From the NCBI GenBank assembly GCA_023898345.1, contig CP060218.1, forward strand, positions 767,777 through 831,776: DNA of 64,000 bases. Reading direction: 5' to 3'. This DNA comes from Candidatus Woesearchaeota archaeon. Its GTDB lineage: Archaea > Nanobdellota > Nanobdellia > Woesearchaeales > UBA583. The first letter of the stretch is position 1, and each line of letters begins with the position of its first letter. The position numbers were made by a program, and so were the translations under genes. The notes under the pieces were generated by a model. That model was given only the letters and a program-made list of their open reading frames with translations, was not told the origin of the DNA and searched no databases. Shown here piece after piece: positions 1 to 40,644 of this stretch.

Positions 1-905
1 CTAAAAATTTAATCGAATTATTAAAAATAGATTTAATTCGAAATTATGAAACTAGAGAGGAAAATAGTAATTTATTAAAAGGAAAACTATTAATGTCAAA
101 ACATTTAAGATATAATTTATTTAATAAAGCTAAATTCTATTCTCAGTTTGATGAGTTCACAGAAGATAATTCACTTAACAAAACATTTAAGTTAACTATT
201 GACAAATTACTCAAATTTACTCAAAATTCAAAAAATTTTAAATTACTAACAGAATGTAATTTAATCCTTCAAGATGTTACATTAAATAAGCTTTCAATTA
301 ATGATGTTGAAAAAGTTAAATTTACAAGATTAAATAAACAATATGAGAATATATTCAACTTAGCAAAATTATTATTATTTGAAAATTCCATAGATTTAAA
401 TTCTAAAGACACTAAAACATATTCATTAATGTTTGATATGAATAAATTATTTGAGGAATTTATTTTTGAATTTATAAGAAGAAATTTTCAATTTAGATTT
501 GAAAATATTCAATCAGAAAAACCTCAAAAATATTTATTTATAGATTCGCCTAAATTTATTTTAAAACCAGATATAACTATTAATTGTAATAAAGATAATT
601 GTGAATTAATAATTGATACTAAATACAAAAAAGTTAATGATATAAAATCTGACAAATATGGAGTTTCAAGAGAAGATGTCTATCAAATGTTTGTTTATTC
701 AAAAGTATATAACTGTAAAAATATAATCTTATTATATCCTAAATATGAAAAAGAGATAGAAAACGTAGTGTTTGAATCAGAATTTAATTTCAAACTTCAT
801 ATTAAAACTGTAGATTTACATATAGATTTAATAAAAGACAAAGAGAAATTAAAAAGAGAATTAAATACACTATTAAACATAATCCAAAATGACATTAAAC
901 AATAA
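1..905 (+). CDS. PD-(D/E)xK nuclease, McrC-like C-terminal region (5' partial; frame open to window start)
   Basis: ORF 93..905 has no in-frame stop upstream to position 3; motif PDITIN...ELIIDTKYK resembles the PD-(D/E)xK core of McrC-type subunits; 17-nt overlap with the downstream helicase gene. Confidence 0.4.
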   Translation, partial: KNLIELLKIDLIRNYETREENSNLLKGKLLMSKHLRYNLFNKAKFYSQFDEFTEDNSLNKTFKLTIDKLLKFTQNSKNFKLLTECNLILQDVTLNKLSINDVEKVKFTRLNKQYENIFNLAKLLLFENSIDLNSKDTKTYSLMFDMNKLFEEFIFEFIRRNFQFRFENIQSEKPQKYLFIDSPKFILKPDITINCNKDNCELIIDTKYKKVNDIKSDKYGVSREDVYQMFVYSKVYNCKNIILLYPKYEKEIENVVFESEFNFKLHIKTVDLHIDLIKDKEKLKRELNTLLNIIQNDIKQ

Positions 906-3900
906 CCAAAAAAAAGCAGTTGAAAAGATAAAAGGACCAACTATAGTTCTAGCTGGAGCAGGTACAGGTAAAACTTACACAATAGTAGAAAAAGTAAAGC
1001 ATCTTGTTGAATCAGGTGAATATAAACCTGAAGAAATTTTATGCCTAACCTTTTCAAATGAAGCTGCAAACTCTTTAAAAAATAAAATACAAGAAGGGTT
1101 GAAATCTTTTAAAGTGCCAACTGTTAGAACTTTTCATGGTTTTTGTTTAGATATTCTAAAAGAAGATTCAAACTTACTAAACATAGACAACGGTTTTGAT
1201 ATTCTTCTACCTGATGATGCTAAAGTATTAATGCACAGAGAATTAAACATCTCACCTTATTGGTCTAATAGATATGTATCAACTATATCAAATGCTAAAG
1301 ATTTTGGAATAGAAAAAGTAAAGATAGAAGAATACTTCTTAAAAATAAAGGAACACTTAGCACAAAACTATGATATAAACAATATCGACGAAATAGCAAA
1401 AGAGAAAGAGTTCGACCTAAATACAATTCATCTAGAACCAAATACTAAAGAGATAAGAGCATACAAAAAAGAGATCAAAGAGTTCTTAGAGTTATACAAA
1501 GAGTACGAATCATTTAAAGAGTTTCTTCAAGTCTGGGATGATTTTGAACAATTAAAAAAAGATAAAAACTTTTTAGACTATGGAGATCTAAATCATTTTG
1601 TTTTACATTTATTTAGAAAATTTGGAGCAGATAAGTATACAGATAGATATAAACATGTAATTATAGATGAATTTCAAGATACAAATAAAGTCCAATTTGA
1701 ATTAATAGAACATATTGCAATAGATCACAAAAACATAACAGTAGTAGGAGATCCAAATCAGAGTATTTATGGATTTAGAGGTTCATATAAAGAGAGCTTT
1801 AATCATTTCATGAAAACTTACAATGCAACTGAAAAAGATGAAGTTAAATTAGAAGAGTCCCACAGGTCTACAAATAGAATATTAAATATTGCTCATGATT
1901 TAATTAAAAATAATTATGAGAATCAAGAAGAATGTTTTAAGACATTTAATGCAGAAAAACACGAAGGAAAAAAAGTTAAAATAATTGAGTCTGTTAATAT
2001 GGCAGAAGAAGCAAGAGTAATTGCTGACATAGTTGAAGAAAAATTAAAACAAGGAACTATTGCAAAAGATATATGTATTTTATTTAGAACTCACCGGCAA
2101 GGAGATTACCTAAAAGAGTATTTAAGTTCAAGAAATATTCCTCTAGCTCAAGCAGGAAAGACTAATCTTCTAAACAAAAGAGAGATTAAAACTACTATTT
2201 GCTATCTCTCAATGTTAAACAATCTAGTAACAAGAACTGCAACAGGAGAGCAAGGTTTATGGTCTTTATTTCATTATAAAAACTTTCTTTCAATGGAAGA
2301 CTCATTAAAAATAGGAAGATATCTTAAGAAGAACAAAGACAAATCTATTGATGAAATATTAATGTTTGCAATTAAAGAGTTAGACTTAACTCAAAGTTCA
2401 ATTAAGATAATTAAAAATATTTTAAGTAAGATAAGAGAACTTCACAAGAGATCAAACTTGCCTCTTGAAGAGTTAGTTTTAGAGATATATGAAATTACAG
2501 GATTAAATAGAGCTTTCTCATATCAAAGAACTAATGAGAATGTTGAAGCTTTAATGAATCTTAAGAAATTTTATGATATTGCAAAATCTTTTAGAGAGTT
2601 TCATGGAGATAACTTAAACAACTTTATAGATTATTTAGAAGTATTAAGAGAACTAGGAGTATCAATTGATGCAAGTGAAATTAAAAATGATAATGCTGTA
2701 AGATTTATGACTATTCATGCATCAAAAGGTTTAGAGTTTGAGACTGTAATCGTCTCAAATTTAGCTGAGAAAAGATTTCCAGTATCAAGAACTCAAAATG
2801 AACCTCTAATTCCAAAAGAGTTACTTCCAGACTTAAAACTTTATTTAGAAAAAAAAGGAGAATTAACAGATAAAGAGAAAGAAGATGTAATTAAGAATTA
2901 CGAAAAAGAGATGCTTTTAATTGAGGAAAGAAGGCTCGCTTATGTTGCATTTACAAGAGCAAAAAATGAATTAATATTAACATTTGCAAGAAGTTATGAT
3001 AAAAATCCTGATTCAAATGAAGAGTCTATATTTTTACAAGAGATAGGTTATGATAATTGGAACTCATCTGAAGAGAAAATAGAAAATGAAAATTTAGAAT
3101 ATATTAAAGATGAACAAGAATTAAATACTTCAGTTGCACCAACTTCTCCAAAAGATAAATTATTAGATATTTTAAAGAAACAGATAGTTGAGAGTTTAGA
3201 TAGTGATGATATTAATACTATATTAGATAATATTTCGCAATATAGGACAGTTAAAGAAGAAAAAATAGTTAATCTAAACAAGATGTCAGAAAAAGATTTA
3301 AATAATCTAATTGAGAAGGCTAAGACTAATTTCTCTGGATTAAAATTTGACAAATCTATGATAACACTATCACCATCTGCTTTAATAGATTATAGCGAAT
3401 GTCCAAAAAAATTTGAATTATCAAGAATACTACAAATGCCTCAAAAAAATCAATTTTCTGATGATACTGATGCAGCATCTATTGGTTCATTTGTTCATCA
3501 AGTATTAGAAGATGGAGTAAATAATAAATTCAAATCTGAAAAAGAGTTCTTAGAACACTCTAAAGAGCTAATGAAAAAAGAAGAGTATGAAGGAATGCCT
3601 CAAGATGAAGTTGAGACAATGATTAAAGTATTCTGGCTCAGAAACAAAAATAAATACAATGATAAGTCGCAAACAGAGATTGGTCTATCTATGGAACTTG
3701 ATGGCTTTAAATACTTTGGACTAGCAGATAGAGTAGATGAATTAGAAGATGGAACACTTGAAATTGTAGATTACAAATCTAATAAATCAGCAGTTGATAC
3801 TAAAAAAAGAAATTATCAATTAGGTTACTATGCAATTGCATGTAGAGAATCTATGAAAAGAGAACCATCTAAATTAACTCTTGAAATGTTAAAGTTAGAT

Positions 3901-4113
3901 AAACCTTTAGAAATGTTTGTTGAAGGAAATATTGTAAAAGGTCCAGATGGTAGAACAAAGCCATTTAATCTTGATGAACTAAAAGAAGAATTTAAAATGT
4001 TAGCAAATAAAATTGCAAAAGATTTTGAAAGCGAGTTTAAAGTGAGTGATAATGAGAATGCCTGTAGGTTTTGCGGACTTAAATTTTATTGTCCAAAATA
4101 TAGTGAGGATTGA
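889..4113 (+). CDS. SF1 UvrD/Rep-type helicase fused to C-terminal RecB/Cas4-like PD-(D/E)xK nuclease with Cys cluster
   Basis: Walker A LAGAGTGKT, Walker B VIIDEFQD, C-terminal EIVDYKSNK, QLGYYAIAC and CRFCGLKFYCPKY motifs in the 1074-aa translation. Confidence 0.75.
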   Translation: MTLNNNQKKAVEKIKGPTIVLAGAGTGKTYTIVEKVKHLVESGEYKPEEILCLTFSNEAANSLKNKIQEGLKSFKVPTVRTFHGFCLDILKEDSNLLNIDNGFDILLPDDAKVLMHRELNISPYWSNRYVSTISNAKDFGIEKVKIEEYFLKIKEHLAQNYDINNIDEIAKEKEFDLNTIHLEPNTKEIRAYKKEIKEFLELYKEYESFKEFLQVWDDFEQLKKDKNFLDYGDLNHFVLHLFRKFGADKYTDRYKHVIIDEFQDTNKVQFELIEHIAIDHKNITVVGDPNQSIYGFRGSYKESFNHFMKTYNATEKDEVKLEESHRSTNRILNIAHDLIKNNYENQEECFKTFNAEKHEGKKVKIIESVNMAEEARVIADIVEEKLKQGTIAKDICILFRTHRQGDYLKEYLSSRNIPLAQAGKTNLLNKREIKTTICYLSMLNNLVTRTATGEQGLWSLFHYKNFLSMEDSLKIGRYLKKNKDKSIDEILMFAIKELDLTQSSIKIIKNILSKIRELHKRSNLPLEELVLEIYEITGLNRAFSYQRTNENVEALMNLKKFYDIAKSFREFHGDNLNNFIDYLEVLRELGVSIDASEIKNDNAVRFMTIHASKGLEFETVIVSNLAEKRFPVSRTQNEPLIPKELLPDLKLYLEKKGELTDKEKEDVIKNYEKEMLLIEERRLAYVAFTRAKNELILTFARSYDKNPDSNEESIFLQEIGYDNWNSSEEKIENENLEYIKDEQELNTSVAPTSPKDKLLDILKKQIVESLDSDDINTILDNISQYRTVKEEKIVNLNKMSEKDLNNLIEKAKTNFSGLKFDKSMITLSPSALIDYSECPKKFELSRILQMPQKNQFSDDTDAASIGSFVHQVLEDGVNNKFKSEKEFLEHSKELMKKEEYEGMPQDEVETMIKVFWLRNKNKYNDKSQTEIGLSMELDGFKYFGLADRVDELEDGTLEIVDYKSNKSAVDTKKRNYQLGYYAIACRESMKREPSKLTLEMLKLDKPLEMFVEGNIVKGPDGRTKPFNLDELKEEFKMLANKIAKDFESEFKVSDNENACRFCGLKFYCPKYSED

Positions 4114-4114
4114 A

Positions 4115-4519
4115 ATGGCATTTAAAGAAGAATTACATTTTATTTTTTTGGGAATCTCAACAATATTAACATCATTTTTATTAGATTATTTATTTAATTA
4201 TGCTGAGATTTATTCGAAAATAAATTCAATTATTGCATTAGTATTATTTGGTTTGTTCTTAATTTTTATGACTAAACTAGTTTTGTTTCCAATAACAGCT
4301 TATTTTAATAAATTATTTTTACCTAAAGGATATAAATCAAGAAAATATCTTGATATTAATAATGATTTTAATCTACCAAGCACATCTATTATTACAATAT
4401 TTATTATAGATAATGTTTCAAGTTTATATTCATTAGATTATATTTATTTAGTTATTTTAGTTATTCCTATATTTTTAATAATTCATTATCTAAATGAAAA
4501 TTTCGAGATATATAGTTAA
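4115..4519 (+). CDS. Small integral membrane protein, hypothetical
   Basis: ATG at 4115 directly after helicase stop; multiple hydrophobic helices in translation. Confidence 0.4.
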   Translation: MAFKEELHFIFLGISTILTSFLLDYLFNYAEIYSKINSIIALVLFGLFLIFMTKLVLFPITAYFNKLFLPKGYKSRKYLDINNDFNLPSTSIITIFIIDNVSSLYSLDYIYLVILVIPIFLIIHYLNENFEIYS

Positions 4520-4578
4520 TCATGTTCATATTGATAAATGAACTCTAAAAAAATTATAGATGGTATGTAAAATAAAAT

Positions 4579-4761
4579 TCAAAACTCCAACAAATAAAAA
4601 CCTAAAGCACTTTTACCAATAATTGTGCATTCTAAAAATTTCTTTTTTAGTAAGTTTGGATTTATTCCCTTAGCAGAAACTCTAAAAGTCTCATATTTGT
4701 CATTTAAGAGGAATTTTCCTCTCTTCTCAGATTCAAATTCCATATATTTTGTCGTTTTCAT
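4579..4761 (-). CDS. Hypothetical small protein (60 aa)
   Basis: ORF only; position between membrane protein and integrase. Confidence 0.2.
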   Translation of the reverse strand: MKTTKYMEFESEKRGKFLLNDKYETFRVSAKGINPNLLKKKFLECTIIGKSALGFYLLEF

Positions 4762-4897
4762 AATATTCTAAAATTTGGTTATTTTTAACACTTTGCAAAG
4801 ACTATTAACTTCAATTTAAGCGATTTACACTCAAAATAATGAGAGAAATATTTCAAAACAAGTCTTAGTCTTAAAATGTCAAAAAAGTCTTCAAATA

Positions 4898-5809
4898 TCA
4901 ATGTCTAATCACCTCCAACACTTTTTCATATTCTTTTACTGCAATCTCTTTTTTATTTAAATAATGAGTCATCCCAACATTTTTTGAAGTTGACCTTCCA
5001 GATATGAAGTTTGCTATTTCAATTGCAACTCCTGCTTTAACCATTAAAGTAAATGAATACTTTCTTAGATACTTTAAATGAACTATTTTCTTATTATCTT
5101 GGGTATGATCTACAAATCTATTGAAGTATGTTTTATCAAATTTACCAATATGTTCTTTTAATTCATTATATAATTCTAATGTAAAGAATAGATAATAAGA
5201 TGATTTCTGACCTCTTAAATAGAAATTATTGTAAGTAACTATGCCGTTTTCATGTATTTCTATGTTCTTTTCATCAAAATTTTCAAAGAAATGTTTAACT
5301 TCTGTTGTCCTAGCTGTTGTTTCAATATAGAATCTATATAATAAATAATGTAATCTATCATATTTAGATACTTCTTTTACAGAGTTTTTAATCTCCAAAC
5401 ATGTAGGAATATAAGTATCAATATGAACTTCATTGTGAATTTTAATTCTTCTTCGGATGTTTTCAATTATATCTAAGTCTAATATATCAAACTCTTCTAA
5501 GTAATTCAGCCATACTCTAATTGCAACTCCTCCTTGTCTTTTGTTAATTTTTTCAAGAGCAATAGCATTTTTAATCTCTTCAATGGTATTAACACTAATC
5601 TCTTCAAACAATTTAGTTAGACAATTAAAAACAGATACTGCGTAAGTTCTTGTGAACTTTTTTAAAGTATATACTTTATATTCATTTTTTGTCTTAAAGT
5701 ATATACTTTTTAATTCTATAAAATTTTGATTTTTTGGCGTAAAATTTTCTAAATTTTGAGAAATTTGCTGTTGATTAGAAATTTGTGAGGAGGCGTATTT
5801 GCCCCCTAG
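4898..5809 (-). CDS. Tyrosine recombinase / integrase (N-terminus uncertain)
   Basis: C-terminal HLKYLRKYSFT...GRS...GMTHY resembles the H-x-x-R ... Y catalytic region of tyrosine recombinases; track ORF runs on to 5980 through the tRNA, which is unlikely to be coding; no in-frame ATG after the tRNA, first TTG is much further in. Confidence 0.55.
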   Translation of the reverse strand, partial: LGGKYASSQISNQQQISQNLENFTPKNQNFIELKSIYFKTKNEYKVYTLKKFTRTYAVSVFNCLTKLFEEISVNTIEEIKNAIALEKINKRQGGVAIRVWLNYLEEFDILDLDIIENIRRRIKIHNEVHIDTYIPTCLEIKNSVKEVSKYDRLHYLLYRFYIETTARTTEVKHFFENFDEKNIEIHENGIVTYNNFYLRGQKSSYYLFFTLELYNELKEHIGKFDKTYFNRFVDHTQDNKKIVHLKYLRKYSFTLMVKAGVAIEIANFISGRSTSKNVGMTHYLNKKEIAVKEYEKVLEVIRH

Positions 5810-5812
5810 AGA

Positions 5813-5894
5813 CGCCAAGACTGGGATTTGAACCCAGAATTCCGAAGGAACTACATTAGCAGTGTAGCGCAATACCGAGTTATGCGATCTTGGC
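5813..5894 (-). tRNA. tRNA-Ser (anticodon GCU)
   Basis: Manual fold of minus strand: acceptor GCCAAGA/TCTTGGC, anticodon stem CTACA/TGTAG, loop CTGCTAA, long variable arm TTCC..GGAA, T-arm CTGGG-TTCAAAT-CCCAG, discriminator G. Confidence 0.8.
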
Positions 5895-5923
5895 ATTAGG
5901 TCTCTTTTTTTAGTCGCCGCCGG

Positions 5924-5958
5924 ATTAGCAGTGCTGCGCAATACCGAGTTATGCGACC
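5924..5958 (-). repeat. Partial duplicate of tRNA-Ser 5' half (32/35 identical to 5855-5889)
   Basis: Direct repeat attagcagtg(ct/ta)gcgcaataccgagttatgcga(c/t)c about 30 bp 5' of the tRNA on the same strand. Confidence 0.6.
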
Positions 5959-6041
5959 TCAGCTCGATGAAGATAAACAAGTAAACTTGCTATCAAAAAG
6001 TGATAAGCCAAATCTCTTTTAAAAGATTTTGCTTCTTCCCT

Positions 6042-9829: not shown

Positions 9830-10726
9830 TCCCGAAAAACTCCCTTAAACAAATGTTTAAATTCAGAAGAGATAAATCTTATTTTTATGGAACATTCTGA
9901 AGCCCTAGAAATTATAGAAACTTATGATTTAACTCCTGGACAAAGAGAATTTCTTTTTGAAAGGGCTCCTTCTTATGCTGATTCTACTTCGAATTTTCCT
10001 GCTCTTTATTCGCTGATTGCAGAAGCAGTCTCTTTCTTGAAACAACCTCTCCCTGAAAAAATGGGATTAAGTTTGGAAATGCGTCTATCTCCTACGGATG
10101 AGAGAACTTTAAAAGATGTTCTTGGTTACGAAGCACCCAGAATATTTGAACATGACATTCAGTACAGAACAGAGCAAATACGTAACATTTCACGTTTTTC
10201 TTTAGAAAAAAGAATGTCTTTTGATTTGTTAGAATTTTTTACATCTCTTGTCCTTCACAGTAGCCTAGAACCTGAAGACTATCAAAGGCTCCTCGAAACT
10301 GTAAATCCTGAAAAACTCTTAGAAATTTCATCTCGTTTAAAACAGGTAAAAGAACGGATTTTTGATAAAGAAGAATACTTTCTTAACATAATAGGAATAA
10401 AATCTTTTGATCCATTACAGATAAAATTTCTAAAACAAAGAAACTATAATGGAAATCCTTTAGCTTTTTTTAGAGAATATTTTCCTCTTTATCAAGGAAT
10501 GTCTAGATCAGAATTAAAGTCTTTTGACGTTGGTCTATACCAAGCACTGCGTTTACATGGACAAATACACTTGGCCATCCCAAGGAATAAAAAGAAACCT
10601 TCAGAATCAGATATTGCGCGAATTCAACGAATTTTTGAGTCTTATAATAGAAACAAAAGAGAAACTGCCCGTTTTCTTGGTATTACTAGCCAAACAGTTG
10701 CAAAATATATTCGTCCACAAAAATAA
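9821..10726 (+). CDS. Hypothetical protein with C-terminal helix-turn-helix
   Basis: C-terminal RETARFLGITSQTVAKYI resembles a Fis-type HTH; start codon uncertain. Confidence 0.35.
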   Translation: MCQSRKTPLNKCLNSEEINLIFMEHSEALEIIETYDLTPGQREFLFERAPSYADSTSNFPALYSLIAEAVSFLKQPLPEKMGLSLEMRLSPTDERTLKDVLGYEAPRIFEHDIQYRTEQIRNISRFSLEKRMSFDLLEFFTSLVLHSSLEPEDYQRLLETVNPEKLLEISSRLKQVKERIFDKEEYFLNIIGIKSFDPLQIKFLKQRNYNGNPLAFFREYFPLYQGMSRSELKSFDVGLYQALRLHGQIHLAIPRNKKKPSESDIARIQRIFESYNRNKRETARFLGITSQTVAKYIRPQK

Positions 10727-10773
10727 CTCCTTTTTTCTCCTCTCCTTCCACTTTGTTCGTTTGCTAGATAACG

Positions 10774-10805
10774 TTCTCGAAGTTAAAAACTTCTGCGGAA
10801 TACTA
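10774..10805. repeat. Conserved imperfect-palindrome repeat, copy 1 of 4 (GTTCTCGAAGTTAAAAACTTCTG.GGAGCA)
   Basis: Near-identical cores at 10774-10805, 33735-33790 (interrupted), 40544-40576 and 57352-57384. Confidence 0.6.
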
Positions 10806-10874: not shown

Positions 10875-11234
10875 TTATTTGTCCTGAAATACTCCCTTAA
10901 CTTCAAGCTGAAAACTTTCAATCTCGCCAGGAACCTTGTCTTTTAGAAAATCCAAATTCTCCAACTCAAAGTGAACGATCTTTCCCGTCTCTGTGCACTC
11001 GAAATGACAATGACTTCTTTTTGTAGAAGAATAAATAGTCTTTCCTTGACAGGTGTACGAATAAATCTGATTCCTTTCTCTCGCATCCTTGAGGAAACGA
11101 TAAATTGTTGCAATACCTATTTTTTTATCGACTTTTGCGACTTTCTCTAACAAGGCTTCAGCATTGAAAAAAGTTTTTGTCTTTCTAATCTCCTCCTCAA
11201 TAACTTCCTTTTGTCTTGTTTGTCTGCTTTTCAT
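10875..11234 (-). CDS. Fur-family metal-responsive regulator (likely Zur)
   Basis: Fur-like DNA-binding N-terminus and HCHFEC/CQGK metal sites; adjacent to zinc uptake genes; ATG at 11234 preferred over track TTG at 11255. Confidence 0.7.
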   Translation of the reverse strand: MKSRQTRQKEVIEEEIRKTKTFFNAEALLEKVAKVDKKIGIATIYRFLKDARERNQIYSYTCQGKTIYSSTKRSHCHFECTETGKIVHFELENLDFLKDKVPGEIESFQLEVKGVFQDK

Positions 11235-11235
11235 C

Positions 11236-11258
11236 TTATTGAGAATCAAAGTCAATTA
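11236..11258. promoter_or_regulatory. Candidate Zur operator TTATTGA-N9-TCAATTA between TATA-like box and regulator start
   Basis: 7-bp inverted repeat spaced by 9 bp; same motif upstream of both zinc operons. Confidence 0.45.
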
Positions 11259-11573
11259 TTTTATAAGACTTGCGAGAAACAGAAACAGAAAAAGCACAGA
11301 AAATACAAATTTTTAAATCGAGTTCCATTTTTCCCAAAAATGAAAACACATTCTGATTTTTTTCCTCAAAAACAAACGTATAGAATACTTACAAAAACCT
11401 TATCTCTTTACGAACTCTCAACCCTAAATCCAGCAAAATACAATTCTCTAACACTCAGACTTCTAGGAACACTAAACCCTGACTGGAAACAAGTTGAAAA
11501 CAAACTATTAGAAAAATTTTTAGAAAGCTATTTGGAAATTCCTGTCTCCTCATGCACAAATAAGAGAAAAAAT

Positions 11574-11714
11574 AAGTAAAGAAATCGCTAAAATATGCCT
11601 ATCCCAATCGGAGCAGAGCTCCGGGGCATTACGGCAATTTTCAAGACGCGATTTCTAACTCCCAGCTGGGTGGTCGCAGCAGAGCTGCGGGGTATAAATA
11701 CCCAGCTAAGGAAT
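11574..11714 (+). repeat. 141-bp intergenic repeat, copy 1 (about 98% identical to 31333-31472)
   Basis: Manual alignment: two substitutions and one 1-bp indel; contains palindrome CCCAGCTGGG and internal direct repeat GCAGAGCT(C/G)CGGGG. Confidence 0.7.
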
Positions 11715-11836
11715 CATTGGAACAAGAGCCCAGAGTACAGCCTTACTATCTCCTCTCCCTCAAAACAAATCCTTGAACTCTCACAAAGAAGAAGATATAG
11801 ATTTTGAAAGAATTTTTCTAATAATTGTCCTGAGAG

Positions 11837-11870
11837 TTATTGATAATAAGACTCAATAATATTTATAAAA
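11837..11870 (+). promoter_or_regulatory. Candidate Zur operator (TTATTGA-N9-TCAATAA) plus TATA box TTTATAAAA for the first CobW-type gene
   Basis: 34-bp block identical to 14208-14241; TATA about 25 bp upstream of ATG 11892, implying a leaderless transcript. Confidence 0.5.
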
Positions 11871-11891
11871 TTCCTTCAGTTGCACTTGAAC

Positions 11892-13175
11892 ATGGAAAAC
11901 AAACTCCCCGTTACACTCTTAAGTGGCTTTTTAGGCTCAGGAAAAACAACACTCCTCAATCACATTCTCCACAACAGAGGAAATCTAAAAGTTGCCGTCA
12001 TTGTAAACGACATGTCAGAAGTAAACATCGATGCAAACTTGATTAAAAATGGCGACGCCAAACTTTCGCGGACAGAGGAAAAACTCGTCCAAATGGAAAA
12101 TGGTTGTATCTGTTGTACACTGCGAGAAGACCTTCTAGTAGAAATAAAAAAACTTGCTGAAGAAAAAAAATTTGATTATCTTGTTATCGAAAGTACTGGC
12201 ATAGCAGAACCCCTTCCCGTAGCAGAGACCTTCACCTTTGCCAACGAAAAAGGAAACTCCCTCTCCGACTTTGCGCGCCTCGACACCATTGTAACCGTCG
12301 TTGATGCCTTTAATTTCTTCAATGATTTTTATTCAAAAGAATCTCTCAATGAAAGAGGAGAAAGTTTAGGAGAAGAAGACGAAAGAACCATTGTGAATCT
12401 GCTTGTCGATCAAATTGAATTTTCAAACGTAATCATTCTCAATAAGATTGAAAAGTTACAAGAAGAAGAAAAAAAGAAAATTAAAGCAATTATCAGAAAT
12501 CTCAACAGAGACGCCAAAATACTCGAGACCTCCTACTCAAAAGTAGATTTGAAAGAAATCATACATACAAAGCTCTTTGATTTTGAAAAAGCAGCTCAGG
12601 CTCCTGGATGGCTAAAAGAATTACGAGGAGAACACACTCCAGAAACAGAAGAATACGGAATTTCTTCCTTTGTGTACAGAGCGCGAAAACCTTTTCACCC
12701 AGAAAGATTAAAGGCCCTTTTTTCTGCTAAACTTTTTTCAGGAATTATCAGAGCGAAAGGATATTTCTGGATTGCTACAAGAAACAACATTGCTTTAACT
12801 TTGGCGGTTGCCGGAAAAATTCTAGAGTACAGCGTTGCAGGTTTCTGGTATGGGACAATGCCAAAAAAAGAAATTCAAAAAGACAAGGAACTTTGGGACT
12901 ATCTAAAAACAGTCTGGGAAGAACCATTTGGCGACAGACGACAAGAACTTGTGTTCATTGGAACTGACTATAATAAAGAAGAAATTATGAAAGAACTCGA
13001 CAAAGCACTTTTAACAGACGAAGAAATGAAAGTATCTCCTCAAGAATGGAACACCACCTTTACAGACCCCTTTCCAAAATGGGACATCCCAGAAGAAAGT
13101 GAAGAAGAAGCAGAGAAAAGATTTCAAGAAGAATTGGAAGCTATTCAAGAAGAAAAAGAAAAAATCTTAGGATAA
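11892..13175 (+). CDS. CobW/COG0523-family GTPase, putative zinc metallochaperone
   Basis: [10 protein letters not shown]-loop, CICCTL motif, CobW-like C-terminal domain; ATG 11892 preferred over track TTG 11880. Confidence 0.8.
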
Positions 13176-13177
13176 AA

Positions 13178-14191
13178 ATGTCTTCTTCACCTTTTCCAGA
13201 TACAAGAATCCCTCTTATAATTGTAACAGGATTCCTAGGTTCAGGAAAAACAAGCTTTGTCAACCACATTCTAGCATCACTTACAAACAAAAAAGTTGTC
13301 GTTATAGAAAATGAATTTGCAGAATTAGGTATTGATTCTCGTATTATCAAAAAAAGTAAAGACTCAAAAATTTTTGAACTAAACAATGGCTGTATTTGCT
13401 GTTCTATGAATGGAGAATTGGAAGGCGTTTTTGCCGAGATAGTAAAAAACAAAGAACACTGGGATTATGTCATCATAGAGACGACAGGCGTTGCAGACCC
13501 TTCTCCCATAATCAGCAATTTCTTTTCAAATCCTTTGCTCTGTGAAGAATTTAGACTAGACTGCATGTACACACTTGTCGACTGCAAAAACTTTTTCAAA
13601 CAAATCCAACGAGAATACGAAACAAAAAAACAAATTGCCTTTGCGAACAAAATACTCCTTAACAAAATAGACCTTGTTGAAGAAGAGGAAAAAGAAAAAA
13701 TAAAAAAAGAAATCTCAAAACTCAATCCAGATTCACAGATAAGCGAAACAACACACGCCAAAATTCCACTTCAACACATTTTTGAAGAATCTGCCTTCGA
13801 TATTTCAGATCTTAAAAAGATAAAGAATTCTTTCCAATCCTTTAGTTTTTCTCCCTCTCTTGCACCCTCAGTTCTGACAAAGCCAGTACAAAGTCACGAC
13901 ATACAGTCATTTGGCATTTCCAGTGAAGGCGAAATACTTCTCCCAGAATTTGACTTTTTCATAAGAACACTCATAGAGCTCAAAAGAAATGACTTGTACA
14001 GAACAAAAGGCATCGTCAATCTCAAAGGAGCAAATCAGCCCCTTATTTTTCAAGGAATTCATGATGCCATAGAATGGTTTCCCGGTCCACCATGGGGAGA
14101 AGATGAAAAGAGAGAAACAAAAATGATTTTTATTGGAAAAAATTTGGATAAGCAGGACATTGAAACTGCATTTAAGAAAATTCTTCACTAA
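13178..14191 (+). CDS. CobW/COG0523-family GTPase, second paralog
   Basis: [10 protein letters not shown]-loop and GCICCSM motif. Confidence 0.8.
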   Translation: MSSSPFPDTRIPLIIVTGFLGSGKTSFVNHILASLTNKKVVVIENEFAELGIDSRIIKKSKDSKIFELNNGCICCSMNGELEGVFAEIVKNKEHWDYVIIETTGVADPSPIISNFFSNPLLCEEFRLDCMYTLVDCKNFFKQIQREYETKKQIAFANKILLNKIDLVEEEEKEKIKKEISKLNPDSQISETTHAKIPLQHIFEESAFDISDLKKIKNSFQSFSFSPSLAPSVLTKPVQSHDIQSFGISSEGEILLPEFDFFIRTLIELKRNDLYRTKGIVNLKGANQPLIFQGIHDAIEWFPGPPWGEDEKRETKMIFIGKNLDKQDIETAFKKILH

Positions 14192-14206
14192 AAGTTTTAT
14201 CTCCTG

Positions 14207-14240
14207 CTATTGATAATAAGACTCAATAATATTTATAAAA
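14207..14240 (+). promoter_or_regulatory. Candidate Zur operator (cTATTGA-N9-TCAATAA) plus TATA box for the znuABC operon
   Basis: Identical to the motif at 11838-11871; ATG at 14261. Confidence 0.5.
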
Positions 14241-14260
14241 TAAAATACAAATCTTAGAAT

Positions 14261-15235
14261 ATGAAAAAAAGTCTCGTTTTCATTATGCTCCTTATCGGAG
14301 TTCTTCTTGCATCATGTAGCAGTACAAACACAAGCCAACAAAGTACAAAGCTAGCTGATGAAAACTCTCTCTCTGAAAAACCGACAATCGTAACAACCTT
14401 TTATCCCGTCGAAGAAATTTCCAAAGCTATTCTTGGCGACACAGCAAATGTCGAAGTTCTTGTCGGCTCTGGCGTCGAACCGCATTCGTACGAACCAACT
14501 CCGACACAAATCATAGAACTTTCCAAAGCAGATTCCTTTGTCACCATGGACGGAATGTTTGAACACATTGAAGAAGCAATTATAGAAGCAAACCCAAGTA
14601 TCAAAGTAATTCCGGCAACTCAAAATCTCCCTCTTTTGAAAAATGAAGAAGAGGATGAACACGATCACGAAGATGAAGAACATGACGAGCACGAAGAAGA
14701 AGAGCACGAGCATGATCACGGGGAATACGACCCGCATGTTTGGCTTTCTATTGAGAACATGAAAACGATGACACAAGACGTTCTCGACCAACTTATTGTT
14801 TTGTACCCCGAACACAAGGACATGTACGAAGCAAACGCCAAAGCCTACGAAGAACAACTCGACGAACTTGAAACCCAATACACACAAACACTCAGCAATT
14901 GTTCACAAAACATCATCATCGTCAATCACAAAGCCTTTGCCTACCTTGGACACGAATACGGATTTGAACAAATTTCCGTTGCAGGATTCACGCCAGAATC
15001 AGAACCAAGTCCAAAAGCAATACAAAATGTCGTAGACGAAGCAAAAGAACACTCCCTCAAATATGTATTTTCAGAAGGACAAATAGACCCAAAAACAGCA
15101 CAAACAATTGCCGATGATATAGGAGGAGAAGTACTTGAACTTTACCCTATCAAAATGAACGAAAACCAAAACTACTTTTCCATCATGAGAACAAACTTAG
15201 AAAAACTAGCAATAGGACTAGAATGTTCAAATTAG
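14261..15235 (+). CDS. znuA: Zinc ABC transporter substrate-binding lipoprotein (ZnuA-like) with His/Asp/Glu-rich loop
   Basis: Signal/lipobox-like LLASCSS, acidic His-rich loop EEEDEHDHEDEEHDEHEEEEHEHDH, cluster I substrate-binding fold. Confidence 0.8.
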   Translation: MKKSLVFIMLLIGVLLASCSSTNTSQQSTKLADENSLSEKPTIVTTFYPVEEISKAILGDTANVEVLVGSGVEPHSYEPTPTQIIELSKADSFVTMDGMFEHIEEAIIEANPSIKVIPATQNLPLLKNEEEDEHDHEDEEHDEHEEEEHEHDHGEYDPHVWLSIENMKTMTQDVLDQLIVLYPEHKDMYEANAKAYEEQLDELETQYTQTLSNCSQNIIIVNHKAFAYLGHEYGFEQISVAGFTPESEPSPKAIQNVVDEAKEHSLKYVFSEGQIDPKTAQTIADDIGGEVLELYPIKMNENQNYFSIMRTNLEKLAIGLECSN

Positions 15236-15268
15236 TTTTTTAAATAGAAAAGGAAAAGGAAATCTAAG

Positions 15269-15967
15269 ATGCAAGAACCAATAATTGAAATTAAAGATTT
15301 AACATATTCTTATCACCAAGAACAAAACATACTCGAAAACATCTCTCTTTCCATACACAAAGGTGACTTAGTTGCCATTATCGGTCACAACGGCTCCGGA
15401 AAATCAACACTCGTCAAACTTATAGCAGGCTTGCTCGAACAAAAAACAGAAAGCATAACACTACGAGGAAAACTCTCCTACATTCCACAAAAAGTCAGTT
15501 CAGACAACAACTTCCCCGCCAAAGTAAAGGAAATCCTTGACCTCGAATGCTGTGATTGCAAACTACGTGACGAAGTCCTCAAAAATTTAGGAATAGACGA
15601 GTTTGTCGAAAAACAATTCAAAGTTCTCTCTGGCGGCCAACAACAAAGAGTCCTTATTGCACTTGCACTCCTTTCAAATCCAGACATCCTCATTCTCGAC
15701 GAACCGACAGTTGGCGTGGATACAAAAACCCAAGAAGACTTTTACAAATTGCTCAAAAAACTCCACAAAGAAAGAGAACTCACTATCCTCTTTGTCACAC
15801 ACGACACAGGAATGATCTCTGATTACTTCACAAAAATAATTTGCCTAGACAATAAAAAAGCGCACATGGACGAAGCAAAAAACACAGACAAAGTTCTCCA
15901 CTCTGGTTACGGAGAGCACTTCCACGAAGTCCATCATCACCACCACAAAACAAAGGAGAGCAACTAA
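15269..15967 (+). CDS. znuC: Zinc ABC transporter ATPase (ZnuC-like) with His-rich C-terminal tail
   Basis: Walker A GHNGSGKST, signature LSGGQQQR, Walker B ILILDEP, tail HFHEVHHHHHK. Confidence 0.8.
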   Translation: MQEPIIEIKDLTYSYHQEQNILENISLSIHKGDLVAIIGHNGSGKSTLVKLIAGLLEQKTESITLRGKLSYIPQKVSSDNNFPAKVKEILDLECCDCKLRDEVLKNLGIDEFVEKQFKVLSGGQQQRVLIALALLSNPDILILDEPTVGVDTKTQEDFYKLLKKLHKERELTILFVTHDTGMISDYFTKIICLDNKKAHMDEAKNTDKVLHSGYGEHFHEVHHHHHKTKESN

Positions 15968-15968
15968 G

Positions 15969-16766
15969 ATGTTTGAAATACTAAGTTACGAGTTTATGCA
16001 AAGAGCACTTTTGGGAGGAATAATTATTAGTACAGCAAGTGCGCTCATAGGAGTTTTTCTTGTCCTCAAACGACTTTCACTTTTGGGAGATTCACTCGCA
16101 CACGCTTCCTTTGGCGGCATTGCACTCGGCTTTGTCACAGGCTGGAACCCCCTTCTCACAGCACTCGCCTTTGTCACGCTAGCATCACTTGGCATCGACA
16201 GACTTGTGAACAAACTTAAAGTGTACGGAGAAAGTGCAATTGCTCTCATGCTCTCCTTTGGAATGGCACTCGCACTCCTACTCATAGGAATTGCAAAGAA
16301 AATGGACTACAATATCTTCTCCTATCTTTTTGGTTCTATCCTCACGATAAACTCCTTTGACATTGCACTCGCAGCGACAGTCTTAGCTCTCATTCTCATC
16401 TTTTACTTTTTCAACTACAAAATTCTCCTTTATTCAGCCTTCAATCAAGACATAGCGCTCGTACGAAACAAAAGAACAAAACTCATTGACAAACTCTTCA
16501 TCATGCTCAGTGCAGTAACCATAGTCATTTCCATAAGAGCCGTCGGAATCCTTCTTATCTCAGCACTTCTTGTCATTCCAGCACTCATTGGACTGCGCCT
16601 TTCAAAGTCTTTCAAATCCACAATTTTCATCGCCATACTCAGCTCTATCTGTGGCGTTCTTTTGGGAATCTTTCTTGCCTACTACTTTGATCTGCCTGCT
16701 GGAGGAACCATTGTCATGAGTCTGCTCTTTCTCTTTGTCCTGAGCCTTTTCTTTGGGAGAAAGTAA
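15969..16766 (+). CDS. znuB: Zinc/manganese ABC transporter permease (ZnuB-like)
   Basis: Polytopic membrane protein immediately downstream of the ATPase; 1-nt gap. Confidence 0.75.
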   Translation: MFEILSYEFMQRALLGGIIISTASALIGVFLVLKRLSLLGDSLAHASFGGIALGFVTGWNPLLTALAFVTLASLGIDRLVNKLKVYGESAIALMLSFGMALALLLIGIAKKMDYNIFSYLFGSILTINSFDIALAATVLALILIFYFFNYKILLYSAFNQDIALVRNKRTKLIDKLFIMLSAVTIVISIRAVGILLISALLVIPALIGLRLSKSFKSTIFIAILSSICGVLLGIFLAYYFDLPAGGTIVMSLLFLFVLSLFFGRK

Positions 16767-16804
16767 GAACATAGACATTTAAATTCACAAACACGACAAA
16801 GCTT

Positions 16805-18001
16805 ATGGGAGTGTACGAAGCTGAAGACGACAGCAAACTTCTTCTGAACTGCGCAAAGGAATATCTTACTAAAACAAACAAAGAAGAGCAACTCGACATT
16901 CTTGAGATTGGCGTCGGCTCAGGATTTGTACTTTCAGAACTAGCAAAAGAATTTCCACTGCACAAGTATTTTGGATCAGATATTAACAAGGACGCGCTGC
17001 AAAGTACAAAGCAGCTTTTTCAAAAGAACAAACAGAAAGTCACACTTAAACAATCAAATCTCTTTGAGAAATGGAAAAAAAACAAGTTTGACCTTATTCT
17101 TTTCAACACGCCATATCTTCCCCTTGAAGATGAAGAGAACTTTGAAGAGTTAAGCATGGAAGACAAAGCACTGTACGGAGGCAAAGAAGGAAATGAAGTG
17201 ACTCTTGACTTTCTCAAAGCCTTACCTTCACACCTCAAAGAAAAAGGAAAAACACTCATCATTACTTCAAGTCTAGCAAAACCCGAGCGCATAGAACAAA
17301 GAGCAAAAGAACTTCTCCTTGAAACAAAAATAATCAAAACAAGCCCATCATTTTTTGAAGAAATACTCTGCATAGACATCAAAAAAACATACCTTCTAGA
17401 AAAGCTCAGTAAAGAAAAAATAACAGAAATAGACTATTTTTCAAAAGGAAAAAAATCACAAGTGTACAAAGGAAAATTCCACAAAAAAGACATCATCATA
17501 AAATTAGGAAAAGAAGACGATTTGCAAGTGGAAAAAATCTTTCTCAAAAAACTTGAACATACAAAGTTCACGCCAAAACTCATAGGAAAACAATATTCCG
17601 GTGCAATTCTCATGAGCTACGTCAAAGGAGAAAATATTGAGCAATTTCTAAAAAACAACACAAACAAAAAAGAAATCTCTCAGATTCTTAATTCCTGCCT
17701 TGCACACTGCTACACTTTGGACTCACTCAAGATAACAAAAAAAGAAATGACAAACCCATACAAACACATCATCATCGACGACAAAGCAAATGTAACATTC
17801 ATCGACTTTGAGCGCGCCTTGTACAACGACAATCCCAAAAACACGCGCCAGTTCTTGCAGTACCTTTGTCGGCAAAGTAAGAATTTACAAAAAAAAGGAA
17901 TCGTTCTCGACACAGACAAGATACGAGAACAAGCAAAAGCACACAAAGAAAAACCACAAAAAATCAGACTCCAAACATTTCTTGAAAATAAAATCACCTG
18001 A
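16805..18001 (+). CDS. Fusion protein: N-terminal HemK/Mtq2-like SAM methyltransferase and C-terminal Bud32/RIO-like small kinase domain
   Basis: GVYEAEDDS and FNTPYLP (NPPY-like) motifs N-terminally; kinase-like IIIKLG, HIIIDDKAN and IDFERA C-terminally. Confidence 0.5.
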   Translation: MGVYEAEDDSKLLLNCAKEYLTKTNKEEQLDILEIGVGSGFVLSELAKEFPLHKYFGSDINKDALQSTKQLFQKNKQKVTLKQSNLFEKWKKNKFDLILFNTPYLPLEDEENFEELSMEDKALYGGKEGNEVTLDFLKALPSHLKEKGKTLIITSSLAKPERIEQRAKELLLETKIIKTSPSFFEEILCIDIKKTYLLEKLSKEKITEIDYFSKGKKSQVYKGKFHKKDIIIKLGKEDDLQVEKIFLKKLEHTKFTPKLIGKQYSGAILMSYVKGENIEQFLKNNTNKKEISQILNSCLAHCYTLDSLKITKKEMTNPYKHIIIDDKANVTFIDFERALYNDNPKNTRQFLQYLCRQSKNLQKKGIVLDTDKIREQAKAHKEKPQKIRLQTFLENKIT

Positions 18002-31332: not shown

Positions 31333-31472
31333 AAGTAAAGAAATCGCTAAAATATGCCTATCCCAATCGGAGCAGAGCTCCGGGGCATTACGGCAATTTT
31401 CAAGACGCGATTTCTAACTCCCAGCTGGGTAGTCGCAGCAGAGCTGCTGGGTATAATACCCAGCTAAGGAAT
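31333..31472 (+). repeat. 140-bp intergenic repeat, copy 2 (matches 11574-11714)
   Basis: See copy 1; same orientation, about 20 kb apart. Confidence 0.7.
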
Positions 31473-31497
31473 TATGTAGGTTTTTTGTAGCTCTCCA

Positions 31498-33483: not shown

Positions 33484-33691
33484 TACTTCTTGTAAGAGTT
33501 TCGCTTTATAGTTTTTATTTTTTCGACACAGTGAAAAAATTCTGTTTTGAGGTTGAAGGAAAATTTTGTTCGGCGCCGCTTTCAGTGATAGAAGACTTCA
33601 AAAAAAACAGATACTTGCCCTAAACATTTTTTAGCTCCTCTTTTGAAAAAGTAAAAGATACTAGAATGAATATAGTTTTCCACAAAAATAA

Positions 33692-34912
33692 TTATTTTTG
33701 TCTCTCTTCCAGTTTCTTTGTTCGTTTGCTATAGGGTGTTCTCGGAGTATAATACCCAGCTAAGGAATTAAAAACTTCTGCGGAGCACCATAGAATAAAA
33801 AACAAAACCCCTCCCATGATATAAAACCCGAGTTTGTATGAAGTGTTCATAAAAAAACCGATACTAAAAACAAGAGAAAAATTAAATACCATCGAAATTT
33901 GTCCTTTAATAGAAAGAATAGTCGCTTTGTACCTCTTATCAGCAATATAATGCTTTAGTAAATATCCATCGACAAATGTTCTTCTTCCCATTTCATATGC
34001 TCCAACAAGAATAAGAACAAAAGCTACTACATAAAAGGAATTTGAAAAAGCAATAATAAAAAATGATAACGGAAAAAAAACTGTGTCGAAAAGAAGAATT
34101 TTTTTGATAGGTAAACTTTTTTCAAATCTTCCCAGATTTTTCCCCATAAAAAACTGAAGAAAAGCGGACAAACCCAAAACCACACCAAGTGCTACAATTG
34201 GAAAGCCAAGTGTTTCTAAATATGGAAATATAAAATTTGTTTTTGCAATAGAAAAACCTGTAATTGCTCCTGTAAACGTTGCTAAAGGCAAAAATAACGT
34301 TCCTTTAACTTCCTTGAATACTTGTAACAAAGAGATATGCTTTACTGATTTTTCAGGAAGTGTTGGATTCACAAGAGACAAAGCAAAAAGAAAACCAATA
34401 CTATCAAAACCTAACCCAATTAGGAGGGGAGTTTCTAAGCTAAGCTTTGTCGTATACGGAATAAGAGTAATAAGAACTGCACTAACAAGTGAAGCATAAG
34501 CAGTTATTTTGGTACTGATACTCATAAACTCATCTTCTTTTTTCAAACTTACAAGTGTTTCATGAAGAAATGCAGCTCTTGTGCCAGACTGGGCGGCAAA
34601 GGATAAGGAGGTAAAAATTGCTCCTAAAACAAAAAAAAGTAAAGAAGCACCATAGAGAAAACTCACTACTGCTAAAATCATAAATAGTTTAGCTAAAACT
34701 AGCATTTTTTTATGTCCAATTTTATCTGAGATGTATCCACTTGGAATTTCAAAAAGAAACTCTGCCAAATATCCCATTCCAGACCAAAAGCCGATTTGAA
34801 CAGCATTTGCGTTTGGTAAAGTTAAAAAATATAGAGAAAGAATTGGAAGATAATACCTTCTCTGTGTAAGCTGAAGAATAAATAATTTCCAGATATTATG
34901 CTGTAATTCCAT
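33692..34912 (-). CDS. MFS-type transporter (C-terminal about 30 aa likely read-through of an intergenic repeat)
   Basis: About 12 TM helices; 3' end overlaps the repeat block at 33735-33790. Confidence 0.6.
   Translation of the reverse strand: MELQHNIWKLFILQLTQRRYYLPILSLYFLTLPNANAVQIGFWSGMGYLAEFLFEIPSGYISDKIGHKKMLVLAKLFMILAVVSFLYGASLLFFVLGAIFTSLSFAAQSGTRAAFLHETLVSLKKEDEFMSISTKITAYASLVSAVLITLIPYTTKLSLETPLLIGLGFDSIGFLFALSLVNPTLPEKSVKHISLLQVFKEVKGTLFLPLATFTGAITGFSIAKTNFIFPYLETLGFPIVALGVVLGLSAFLQFFMGKNLGRFEKSLPIKKILLFDTVFFPLSFFIIAFSNSFYVVAFVLILVGAYEMGRRTFVDGYLLKHYIADKRYKATILSIKGQISMVFNFSLVFSIGFFMNTSYKLGFYIMGGVLFFILWCSAEVFNSLAGYYTPRTPYSKRTKKLEERQK
33735..33790. repeat. Composite repeat: hairpin-family element interrupted by a 22-bp fragment (33747-33768) of the 140-bp repeat
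   Basis: gttctcggag + gtataatacccagctaaggaat + taaaaacttctgcggagcac. Confidence 0.55.
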
Positions 34913-38886: not shown

Positions 38887-40509
38887 TTACTGCAAAGAAG
38901 CAACCTTTCGAAGATAAGCCTTAAATTCTTCCATTACTTTTGTTCGGCCATATTCAACAAATTTCACAGAACCTGCTCTTTCGTGTCCGCCACCTTCTGC
39001 TCTTGTATAAGGATGTTCTCTCATAATTTGTCCTGCAAATTCCGGAATAGAGATCCGAGAAATTCCGTCGCTCACGCGAACTGTCAGAAAGGTCGAACCA
39101 GAGGTTGCTGTAACAATTGGCTTGTCAAGTCCTTGTTCAAAAATCTTGTGAATATGATTTGTTGTTTTTCCAACAGCAGGATATTCCCCCCTATTTGTCC
39201 CTTTTTCTCCATCAAAGTGAATAAGATAAAAAGGACCAAAATCTTCTTTTTCAGCATAATATTGTGCAACTTCTTCAACTTGTTTGTAACGCTTTTCGAG
39301 CTCAGGAGCAAGGAGTTGGACAATTCTTTCTTGTGCAGCCTTATTTTTTCCAAAAAGATCGTCAATAAATTCTCTCGATTCCTGAAATCGCAAGTAATGA
39401 GATTGCATATCGACAATTTCCCCTAACTTTGCCATGTAGTCCTGTGTATAACCTTCCGCCTCTGCTTGTACTATGTACTGATCTTTCTCTGTACCATCAC
39501 AGTGATCGAGAATAGCAGCCATCGCAGGAATAAGAACGGAGTTTGTGTGTTTGTCGTGAATGAAGTTTGCAAGTTCAAAGCCAAGCATTCCTGTACAAAC
39601 ATTCGAGTCAAACCCTTCAAGATAAGGATTGATGTGGGCTTCAATATATTTGTCAACTTCAACTTTTCCATCTTTAACCTCTCCTGGATAATGATGATCA
39701 ACAACAACAATTTTAGCGTCATACAAAAGCATCTGCTGCATTGCTAGAATATCTTCTTGTGTCGAACCATTGTCTGTAATGATAATGAGTGGGGGCTTAT
39801 ACCCGTTTTTTACTTTGTCGCGAAGCCAGTAGCATAAATCTTTGACTGCATCTTCGTATTCATAGAATGGAGCTTTTGAGGGCGCACGTCTGTATAATTG
39901 ATACTGAGACAAAAGATCGTTTCCGGTTATTTCATCCATAAAGGACAGTATTGCTCTCTCTATCGTAATTGCTGAAGAATACCCATCACAGTCGGCATTG
40001 TGTCTCAAAAGAATGGGGCGCCCTTCAAGAACTGCCTCTCTAATGATACTTGCAACCTGTACAAATCTCGGCTTAAGTTTTTCTAAAACTTCAGATTGGA
40101 TGGAAAAAGATGTTGAGACTGGCTTTACTTTGTCGAGCTGCTGTTTATCTATTGCTTTTTGGAACTTTGCACTGTCTTTGCTACTTAATTTTTCCATAGA
40201 ATATGCTTCTCCTTCTATGCTGTCCTTTCGCTCTCGAACTTCAAAGCCAACTTTGACGTCGTCTTCCAACTCAATCTCTGGATATGCTCGTGCTCCTGGC
40301 CTTAGGAAAGCTTTTAGCGTAAAATTCGCCGTCCCGTCATTAAGGACCATGAGTGTTGGCCCTGATGTTTGCTTGATCGTTTTTACTCGTGCTTGAAGTT
40401 CGAATTTCTTTCCAACATCCTCAGAAGTAATTTCTCGAAATGTTTTTGTCATTATTCTTTTGAGTGAGGGCCCGTTTATAAGATTACTGTCTATTCTAGT
40501 TGTCCACAA
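38887..40509 (-). CDS. Archaeal RecJ/GAN-like DHH-family nuclease with N-terminal OB fold
   Basis: DHH motifs RHNADCDGYSS, ITDNG, VVDHH and DHHA1 GGGHERAG. Confidence 0.75.
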   Translation of the reverse strand: MWTTRIDSNLINGPSLKRIMTKTFREITSEDVGKKFELQARVKTIKQTSGPTLMVLNDGTANFTLKAFLRPGARAYPEIELEDDVKVGFEVRERKDSIEGEAYSMEKLSSKDSAKFQKAIDKQQLDKVKPVSTSFSIQSEVLEKLKPRFVQVASIIREAVLEGRPILLRHNADCDGYSSAITIERAILSFMDEITGNDLLSQYQLYRRAPSKAPFYEYEDAVKDLCYWLRDKVKNGYKPPLIIITDNGSTQEDILAMQQMLLYDAKIVVVDHHYPGEVKDGKVEVDKYIEAHINPYLEGFDSNVCTGMLGFELANFIHDKHTNSVLIPAMAAILDHCDGTEKDQYIVQAEAEGYTQDYMAKLGEIVDMQSHYLRFQESREFIDDLFGKNKAAQERIVQLLAPELEKRYKQVEEVAQYYAEKEDFGPFYLIHFDGEKGTNRGEYPAVGKTTNHIHKIFEQGLDKPIVTATSGSTFLTVRVSDGISRISIPEFAGQIMREHPYTRAEGGGHERAGSVKFVEYGRTKVMEEFKAYLRKVASLQ

Positions 40510-40543
40510 GACTCATTCTTTTTGTCTCTTCCCTCTCACTATA

Positions 40544-40576
40544 GTGTTCTCGAAGTTAAAAACTTCTGAGGAGCAT
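40544..40576. repeat. Hairpin-family repeat, copy 3
   Basis: gtgttctcgaagttaaaaacttctgaggagcat in the divergent intergenic region. Confidence 0.6.
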
Positions 40577-40644
40577 GATAAGAAATAACCTGACTATGCA
40601 ACCTAGAAGAATTCTTATAAAGAGACAAGAATTGCTTATGCTTT

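Follow-up and report, generated by a model that had tools for sequence, protein, structure and literature searches.

A 64,000-nt stretch of DNA from a Candidatus Woesearchaeota archaeon (the window) contains four copies of a dispersed, multi-copy repeat with defined ends, here called family 1, which in this DPANN genome is probably a non-autonomous, MITE-like insertion element mobilised in trans. Our comparison of the copies shows that one of them inserted into the 3' end of a transporter gene, where it generated a short target-site duplication and replaced the native tail of the encoded protein. The original prediction had described an imperfect-palindrome family at four sites, and related sequence is indeed present at 4/4, with a chance expectation of 0; the repeat family is thus real, but the palindrome makes up only the right-hand third of a 100-nt element. 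The prediction had missed the insertion with a target-site duplication at one copy, as well as a fragment of a second repeat family nested in one copy.

Results

Anatomy of the family-1 element

The host was recognised as a Candidatus Woesearchaeota (a DPANN archaeon) from the ribosomal proteins S8e and L15e (57442-58401) and from identical or similar proteins labelled Woesearchaeota or Nanoarchaeota. Identical proteins are encoded on GCA_020637525.1 (an 839-kb contig), GCA_020430405.1 and many Logan contigs, and the window has a GC content of 35.8%. Its family-1 copies, together with the insert nested in one of them, are as follows.

10706-10805, + strand: full-length family-1 copy, 100 nt (nhmmer E = 8.6e-27), with its hairpin at 10770-10803 and outer arms decayed
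33671-33790, + strand: family-1 copy within the 3' end of an MFS transporter gene, 100 nt long apart from a nested insert of 20 nt
33749-33768, + strand: nested 20-nt fragment ATAATACCCAGCTAAGGAAT in the hairpin loop of the preceding copy, matching the second repeat family's 3' end exactly
40494-40578, + strand: family-1 copy, 85 nt, in the divergent DHH/ndk spacer, with its hairpin at 40544-40576
57346-57389, + strand: hairpin-only family-1 copy (right end), between the stop of a 163-aa ORF (57343) and the S8e stop (57442)

The unit of 100 nt is exact in three aligned copies, namely 10706-10805, 33671-33790 (without its 20-nt insert) and L052:9658-9762, where L052 denotes an unlinked 21-kb piece of the same Woesearchaeota genome that was reached via a paralogous MFS. 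Profile matches and alignment delimit the same termini (TATAGTCGTCCAC... on the left, ...GCGGAGCACNA on the right). The left end opens with TATAGTYGTCCAC, after which comes an A5...T5 palindrome (in two copies, ACAAAAATAATTATTTTTGT); a pyrimidine (C/T)-rich spacer with TTTGTTCGTTTGC at its 3' end occupies the middle; and the right end is an imperfect hairpin of 45-50 nt with the consensus TATAG-GTGTTCT-C-GAAGTT-AAA-AACTTC-TGC-GGAGCAC-NA. On the + strand, the left module of every full-length copy includes T5-6, usually together with A5 (T5 on the - strand), and the inner inverted repeat GAAGTT-N3-AACTTC (6-3-6) is invariant in most copies. The stem comprises 7 + 6 pairs, two of them fixed U-G pairs, plus 2-4 further pairs at its base, in agreement with the G-U-containing stem proposed earlier. 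By inspection, the left end matches the reverse complement of the right end at 9/13 to 11/16 positions (GTnnTCCRCARAA), a weak terminal inverted repeat with a 2-nt offset that could be a chance match.

The recurrent core put forward in the original prediction holds up as a 22-nt sequence, TTCTCGAAGTTAAAAACTTCTG, at 10774, 40547 and 57355 (at most 1 mismatch; 0 expected in 100 shuffles), and is split at 33735. The 33-nt motif as first typed recurs within 3 mismatches at 40544 and 57352 but neither at 10774, whose outer arms are degenerate (AACGTTCTC...GGAATAC at 10770-10803), nor at 33735-33789, where the loop carries the insert (boundaries ambiguous by 1-3 nt). Flanks were said to be shared by some copies, and TTTGTTCGTTTGCTA is found exactly at 10752 and 33717. 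A chance frequency of the motif is countered by an expectation of 0 for the core in shuffles and by further copies, some outside the window in this genome and others in a second one. At 40494-40578, 16-17 nt of the spacer are absent. Nested insertions and internal deletions are thus tolerated by the element.

All 4/4 window copies lie on the + strand, and L002 (a contig of a second genome, described below) and L052 each have copies in both orientations. The genes flanking the copies are convergent at 10774 and 57352 and divergent (DHH/ndk) at 40544, exactly as claimed; the fourth copy, at 33735, lies between tandem minus-strand genes. The description of all sites as intergenic needs amending, since two copies extend into ORF ends: the left end of the copy at 10706-10805 supplies the last 6 codons and stop (YIRPQK*) of a + strand ORF ending at 10726, and another copy supplies the last 32 codons of the MFS ORF (33692-34912). 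Homologues of the 279-aa HTH protein that the element enters at 10706 are at most 40% identical and variable in length, and do not define a native C-terminus for it.

The element has no consistently open frame, stops and frame-breaking indels between copies affecting all six frames. Rfam models matched only three tRNAs in the window, and over two copies nothing credible appeared at E up to 10. The copies are 7-23 kb apart with no CRISPR family match at the sites, and inspection of the hairpin revealed no K-turn, bulge-helix-bulge (BHB), C/D or H/ACA features. Among individual candidates, a C/D box was rejected because ATGATGA at 57333 is an ORF end with the wrong guide spacing, and K-turn, bulge-helix-bulge, H/ACA, archaeal ORB origin boxes and CIRCE were likewise rejected by inspection.

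Several features adjoin the copies. A metal-homeostasis cluster at 10875-18000 comprises genes for ZnuA, an ABC transporter, two CobW-type GTPases and a Fur-family regulator; the stop of the regulator gene is closely followed by a family-1 copy, and a family-2 copy precedes the first cobW gene by about 165 nt. Directly after the S8e stop, a run of about 17 A at 57424-57441 (T on the - strand) is likely an archaeal oligo-T terminator, separate from the hairpin. At 40603-40612, four clustered substitutions (CCTGACTATGCAACC -> CCTGGCTAAGGAATC) distinguish the window from L005/L006/L021/L022, strains otherwise about 99% identical, and recreate the terminal motif of family 2 at a point 25 nt 3' of the family-1 hairpin; the cluster could be a conversion patch.

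Insertion into the MFS transporter gene

The copy at 33671-33790 can be read as an insertion event from the sequence on both of its sides.

33662-33670: left copy of the target-site duplication, TAGAATGAA, 8/9 identical to 33791-33799, abutting the element end
33791-33799: right copy of the target-site duplication, TAGAATAAA, whose - strand gives the native F-I-L codons of MFS, abutting the element end
33620-33661, - strand: orphaned native MFS 3' end, 13 codons VSFTFSKEELKNV + stop, displaced by the insertion

The MFS ORF (33692-34912, - strand, 406 aa) reads into the element, which encodes its last 32 residues. Homologues of 385-391 aa (the nearest 387-391) span only some 92% of the 406-aa product now encoded: the alignment holds to ...GGxLFxIL, including the Leu of the native F-I-L codons that is invariant in MFS homologues, after which the homologues end within about 13 residues and the window ORF continues with 32 unrelated residues. 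When the element and one repeat copy are removed in silico, the F-I-L codons join 33620-33661 in frame and restore an MFS protein of 387 aa, the length of its two closest homologues (P0122, P0125). The insertion is absent from the homologous MFS genes of other genomes, and when the translated element was searched as concatenated peptides, the sole match was this MFS protein. These observations establish that the copy inserted into the MFS 3' end with a target-site duplication, given as 7-9 bp because the leading TA may instead belong to the element's end, and that the native 13-residue tail was replaced by 32 element-encoded residues. A duplication is seen at 1 of at least 8 copies only and none is detectable at the remaining copies; recombination between copies would since have erased most of them.

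Distribution within and between genomes

Beyond the window, L052 holds two family-1 copies, one of which (L052:14033-14128) has lost its left outer arm, and one family-2 copy; no copies were gained when the window was extended in both directions by about 9 kb. The resulting density is about 6 family-1 and about 6 family-2 copies per ~120 kb, or some 50 per Mb each, with one family-1 copy roughly every 20 kb. A census of MITEs lists a Woesearchaea genome with 105 MITEs/Mb, a density among the highest for archaea (PMC11602168), and the two families here reach a density of similar order. Every strain of the species that was sampled has the four window copies, and no insertion polymorphism was seen among them. 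An apparent empty site in L029 was rejected as a chimeric scaffold, which follows the window at 100% identity as far as 33841 before entering an unrelated gene that we read as FecR-like from sequence alone.

Among 185,579 species representatives, and setting aside a chance Enterococcus match, the exact core is found in one further genome, the MAG CAYLKB01 (labelled Methanosarcinales, 27.5% GC). It carries at least 4 copies on three contigs (CAYLKB010000023/168/049, our L002-L004), among them a full-length copy (L002:4673-4779) and a copy into which a palindromic sequence is nested (L004), and the MAG and the window have a single protein in common, at 28% identity. In the alignment, copies from different genomes are as alike as copies from one genome, which points to horizontal spread; family 1 would accordingly have moved between lineages. 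These contigs belong to an uncultured Methanosarcinales bin, yet carry a Woesearchaeota-type element; the bin label looks doubtful, or the contigs look like contamination from a DPANN organism. The family is absent from about 50 kb of three relatives whose ndk is 79-84% identical, and the DHH-ndk spacer of the 84%-identical relative has diverged too far to reveal an empty site. Scans for the core yielded one chance match, in a coding region, among metagenome contigs, and nothing or chance matches without the left arm among viral contigs.

Strand asymmetry of the hairpin and regulatory readings

The hairpin is not symmetric with respect to strand. Across eight distinct hairpins, 95% of cells form standard pairs on the + strand, and 21/128 are G-U pairs that would be A-C on the other strand. 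Private transitions keep + strand pairing in seven cases and break it in two, and RNA folding, suggested earlier as a check, gave the + strand as more stable than the - strand in 5/5 copies tested. Double-sided compensatory changes are absent from the 13 core pairs, and the two weak ones at the stem base are equalled in 74/500 shuffles; the asymmetry is therefore suggestive only. It is nonetheless unexpected for a purely double-stranded-DNA transposon end and counts against the MITE reading. The + strand G-U excess suggests some constraint on a single-stranded form, be it read-through transcripts or a DNA intermediate, secondary to mobility.

These same properties (stability, standard and G-U pairing, retention of pairing by private changes), along with a 22-nt core that is near-identical between two unrelated genomes, are what would be expected if the + strand encoded a host-functional structured RNA, such as a stability, processing or protein-binding hairpin in UTRs, whose copies are kept for their function. 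We consider this unlikely: the core shows no covariation and the two compensatory changes at the stem base fall within the shuffle control, copies decay (10770-10803, L052:14033-14128), and orientation to genes is inconsistent, with copies placed downstream of + genes, antisense to - genes or within divergent promoter regions. The absence of an Rfam match and of K-turn, BHB, C/D or H/ACA features in the hairpin likewise speaks against a host RNA. A role at the DNA level, in which a putative dimeric regulator would occupy the perfect GAAGTT-N3-AACTTC repeat as its operator, draws on the invariance of this 6-3-6 repeat in most copies and on the one copy beside a Fur-family regulator gene and zinc-uptake cluster. 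Such an operator is nevertheless most improbable, as the variants AAAAATTTC (L005/L006) and AAAAGCTTC (L052) disrupt the symmetry of the DNA yet retain G-U pairing, conservation extends over 100 nt instead of the 15 bp of an operator, one copy entered a coding region by a datable insertion, and the adjoining genes have no common function. Equally hard to credit is that the copies are transcription terminator or insulator cassettes between genes, even though most lie at gene 3' ends and the left module of all full-length copies carries T5-6 (+) and usually A5. The original prediction had already held that the repeat is not simply a terminator, and rightly so: no T-tract follows the hairpin on either strand (the sequence 3' of it reads TATATAC / CATAGAA / GATAAGA / TTATAGT), a terminator scan returned 0 sites, two or three copies are divergent or promoter-proximal (40494-40578; L004; L052:9658-9762), and the hairpin-only copy lacks the T-tract module altogether. 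In archaea, hairpin terminators are not the rule and oligo-T is the termination signal. Bacterial promoter and terminator logic is thus inapplicable to this archaeal host, and for the same reason matches to sigma-70 promoters were set aside as irrelevant. It is possible that the T5-6 of the left module stops the archaeal RNA polymerase as a side effect on read-through.

A second repeat family and the retro-mobilisation reading

The window also holds a second dispersed repeat of about 142 nt, family 2, at 11574-11716 (+), 31333-31474 (+) and 62593-62674 (-, shortened), with further copies at L031:798-970, L031:7552-7749 and L052:6238-6385. It contains the internal hairpins AGAAATCGC...GCGATTTCT, CGGAGC-AGA-GCTCCG, GCAGC-AGA-GCTGC and GGGTAT-AA-ATACCC and ends in a constant 3' sequence, ...TATAATACCCAGCTAAGGAATTA (also written ...CCCAGCTAAGGAATTA). 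Shorter versions of about 65, 20-24 and about 12 nt share this 3' end, and the last 20-24 nt are the fragment found in the loop of the hairpin at 33735. Family 2 has no Rfam match, and many short-read contigs stop inside its copies.

A diversity-generating retroelement occupies 58921-62533 (-), with an RVT_1 ORF (59963-62533), an Avd-like gene (59107-59481) and template and variable repeats at 58921-59065 and 59949-60093 that differ by 29 mismatches in total, 19 of them at template adenines; one long ORF contains both the RT domain and, at its 3' end, the variable repeat. Within this RT-containing ORF, a tandem array with a 13-nt unit, TCTGAACCCTGTC (61307-61496), has 13 exact copies in the window compared with 4 in L010, L048 and L011, a 117-nt difference between strains that keeps the reading frame. 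At the other end of the window (1-6000), a low-GC (26-32%) island encodes McrBC, a UvrD/PD-(D/E)XK helicase-nuclease and, adjacent to tRNA-Ser (5811-5895), a tyrosine integrase; the sequence immediately upstream of the window (L045) contains Type I restriction-modification genes. At the position of this island GCA_020430405.1 (L031) has different genes, with a family-2 copy at the junction.

One further mode of spread would be SINE-like, with an RNA copy reverse-transcribed into nicked targets, leaving variable duplications and 5'-truncated copies. Such a mode would accommodate the hairpin-only copy with its intact 3' end (57346-57389), the family-2 series (142, about 65, 20-24 and about 12 nt) with one common 3' end, a duplication of 7-9 bp at one copy and absent elsewhere, and a + strand G-U bias that fits an RNA intermediate; a reverse transcriptase gene (RVT_1) is also present within the window. 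We regard retro-mobilisation as very unlikely all the same, given that the sole RT seen is part of a diversity-generating retroelement with its own TR/VR pair, that an A-tail or other 3' priming signature is absent, that just one family-1 copy is truncated and that no promoter is defined. RTs of diversity-generating retroelements are not known to mobilise other RNAs. That both families spread via + strand RNA as SINE-like retroposons in a DPANN archaeon, possibly with the resident reverse transcriptase, is highly improbable in our estimation; if true, it would join the 5' truncation, the single 7-9-bp duplication, the nesting of family 2 in family 1 and the one-strand G-U bias in a single account.

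Discussion

Combining profile searches, alignment and comparison with homologous genes, our work here favours the reading of family 1 as a MITE-like element mobilised in trans. Its size lies within the range of such elements (about 50-500 bp), it is non-coding and dispersed in several copies, and it is present in some genomes and absent from others. The copies would have been made by a transposase supplied in trans, and a staggered cut of about 9 bp would point to a DDE-type enzyme acting on the weakly matching ends GTnnTCCRCARAA as terminal inverted repeats. No transposase with matching ends was found among the Pfam-annotated genes of about 120 kb of this genome, and the IS of relative L040 was rejected as the parent, as its ends (GAGAACTTTTCAAAAC) and 4-bp duplications have no match to family 1.

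MITEs of the SM type in Sulfolobus are archaeal examples of such elements. Family 1 resembles prokaryotic and archaeal MITEs in being short (100 nt), non-coding, multi-copy and mostly intergenic, with nested and decayed copies, a patchy taxonomic spread, one insertion with a target-site duplication and a high Woesearchaeal density as in PMC11602168. It differs from them in its weak terminal inverted repeats, in a duplication limited to one copy, in lacking a parent IS or transposase in about 120 kb and in a hairpin with strand-specific G-U bias.

The bacterial REP/REPIN sequences are palindromes of 20-40 nt with a GTAG head, arranged as inverted doublets and flanking a RAYT gene. With these family 1 has in common a conserved imperfect palindrome of 35-45 nt, an extragenic location, many copies and a plausible single-strand-specific structure; in contrast, its hairpin ends have no GTAG head, its copies are singletons rather than inverted doublets, its palindrome accounts for just one end of the 100-nt unit and one copy shows a target duplication. 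No RAYT or Y1-transposase domain is found among the Pfam-annotated neighbours. IS200/IS605-derived PATEs have subterminal hairpins at both ends and insert without target duplication; family 1 likewise has hairpins at both ends, whereas its dated insertion bears a 7-9-bp duplication. Rickettsia palindromic elements (RPE) are similar in being palindromic repeats of about 100 nt in a reduced genome that lie within ORFs and add residues, but they have no sequence relationship to family 1, whose host is archaeal, and they insert in-frame internally where family 1 swaps C-terminal tails via its own stop codons. Finally, the Correia elements of Neisseria, like family 1, are about 100-150 nt long, occupy gene ends and promoter regions and contain transcription-signal-like sequence; they belong to another domain of life and possess clear 26-nt inverted repeats and a TA duplication, and no sequence similarity to family 1 was found.

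The kind of element described here is therefore well known, an ordinary genomic parasite that opens no new mechanism; the family itself is new. DPANN genomes are very small and gene-dense, so that each 100-nt parasite matters: the two families together make up roughly 1% of the sampled sequence, at least one transporter C-terminus has been altered by family 1, and short-read assemblies are broken by the repeats, with many contigs ending inside family-2 copies. An element common to an unrelated low-GC genome marks horizontal exchange among uncultured archaea, and family 1 could serve as a strain or lineage marker.
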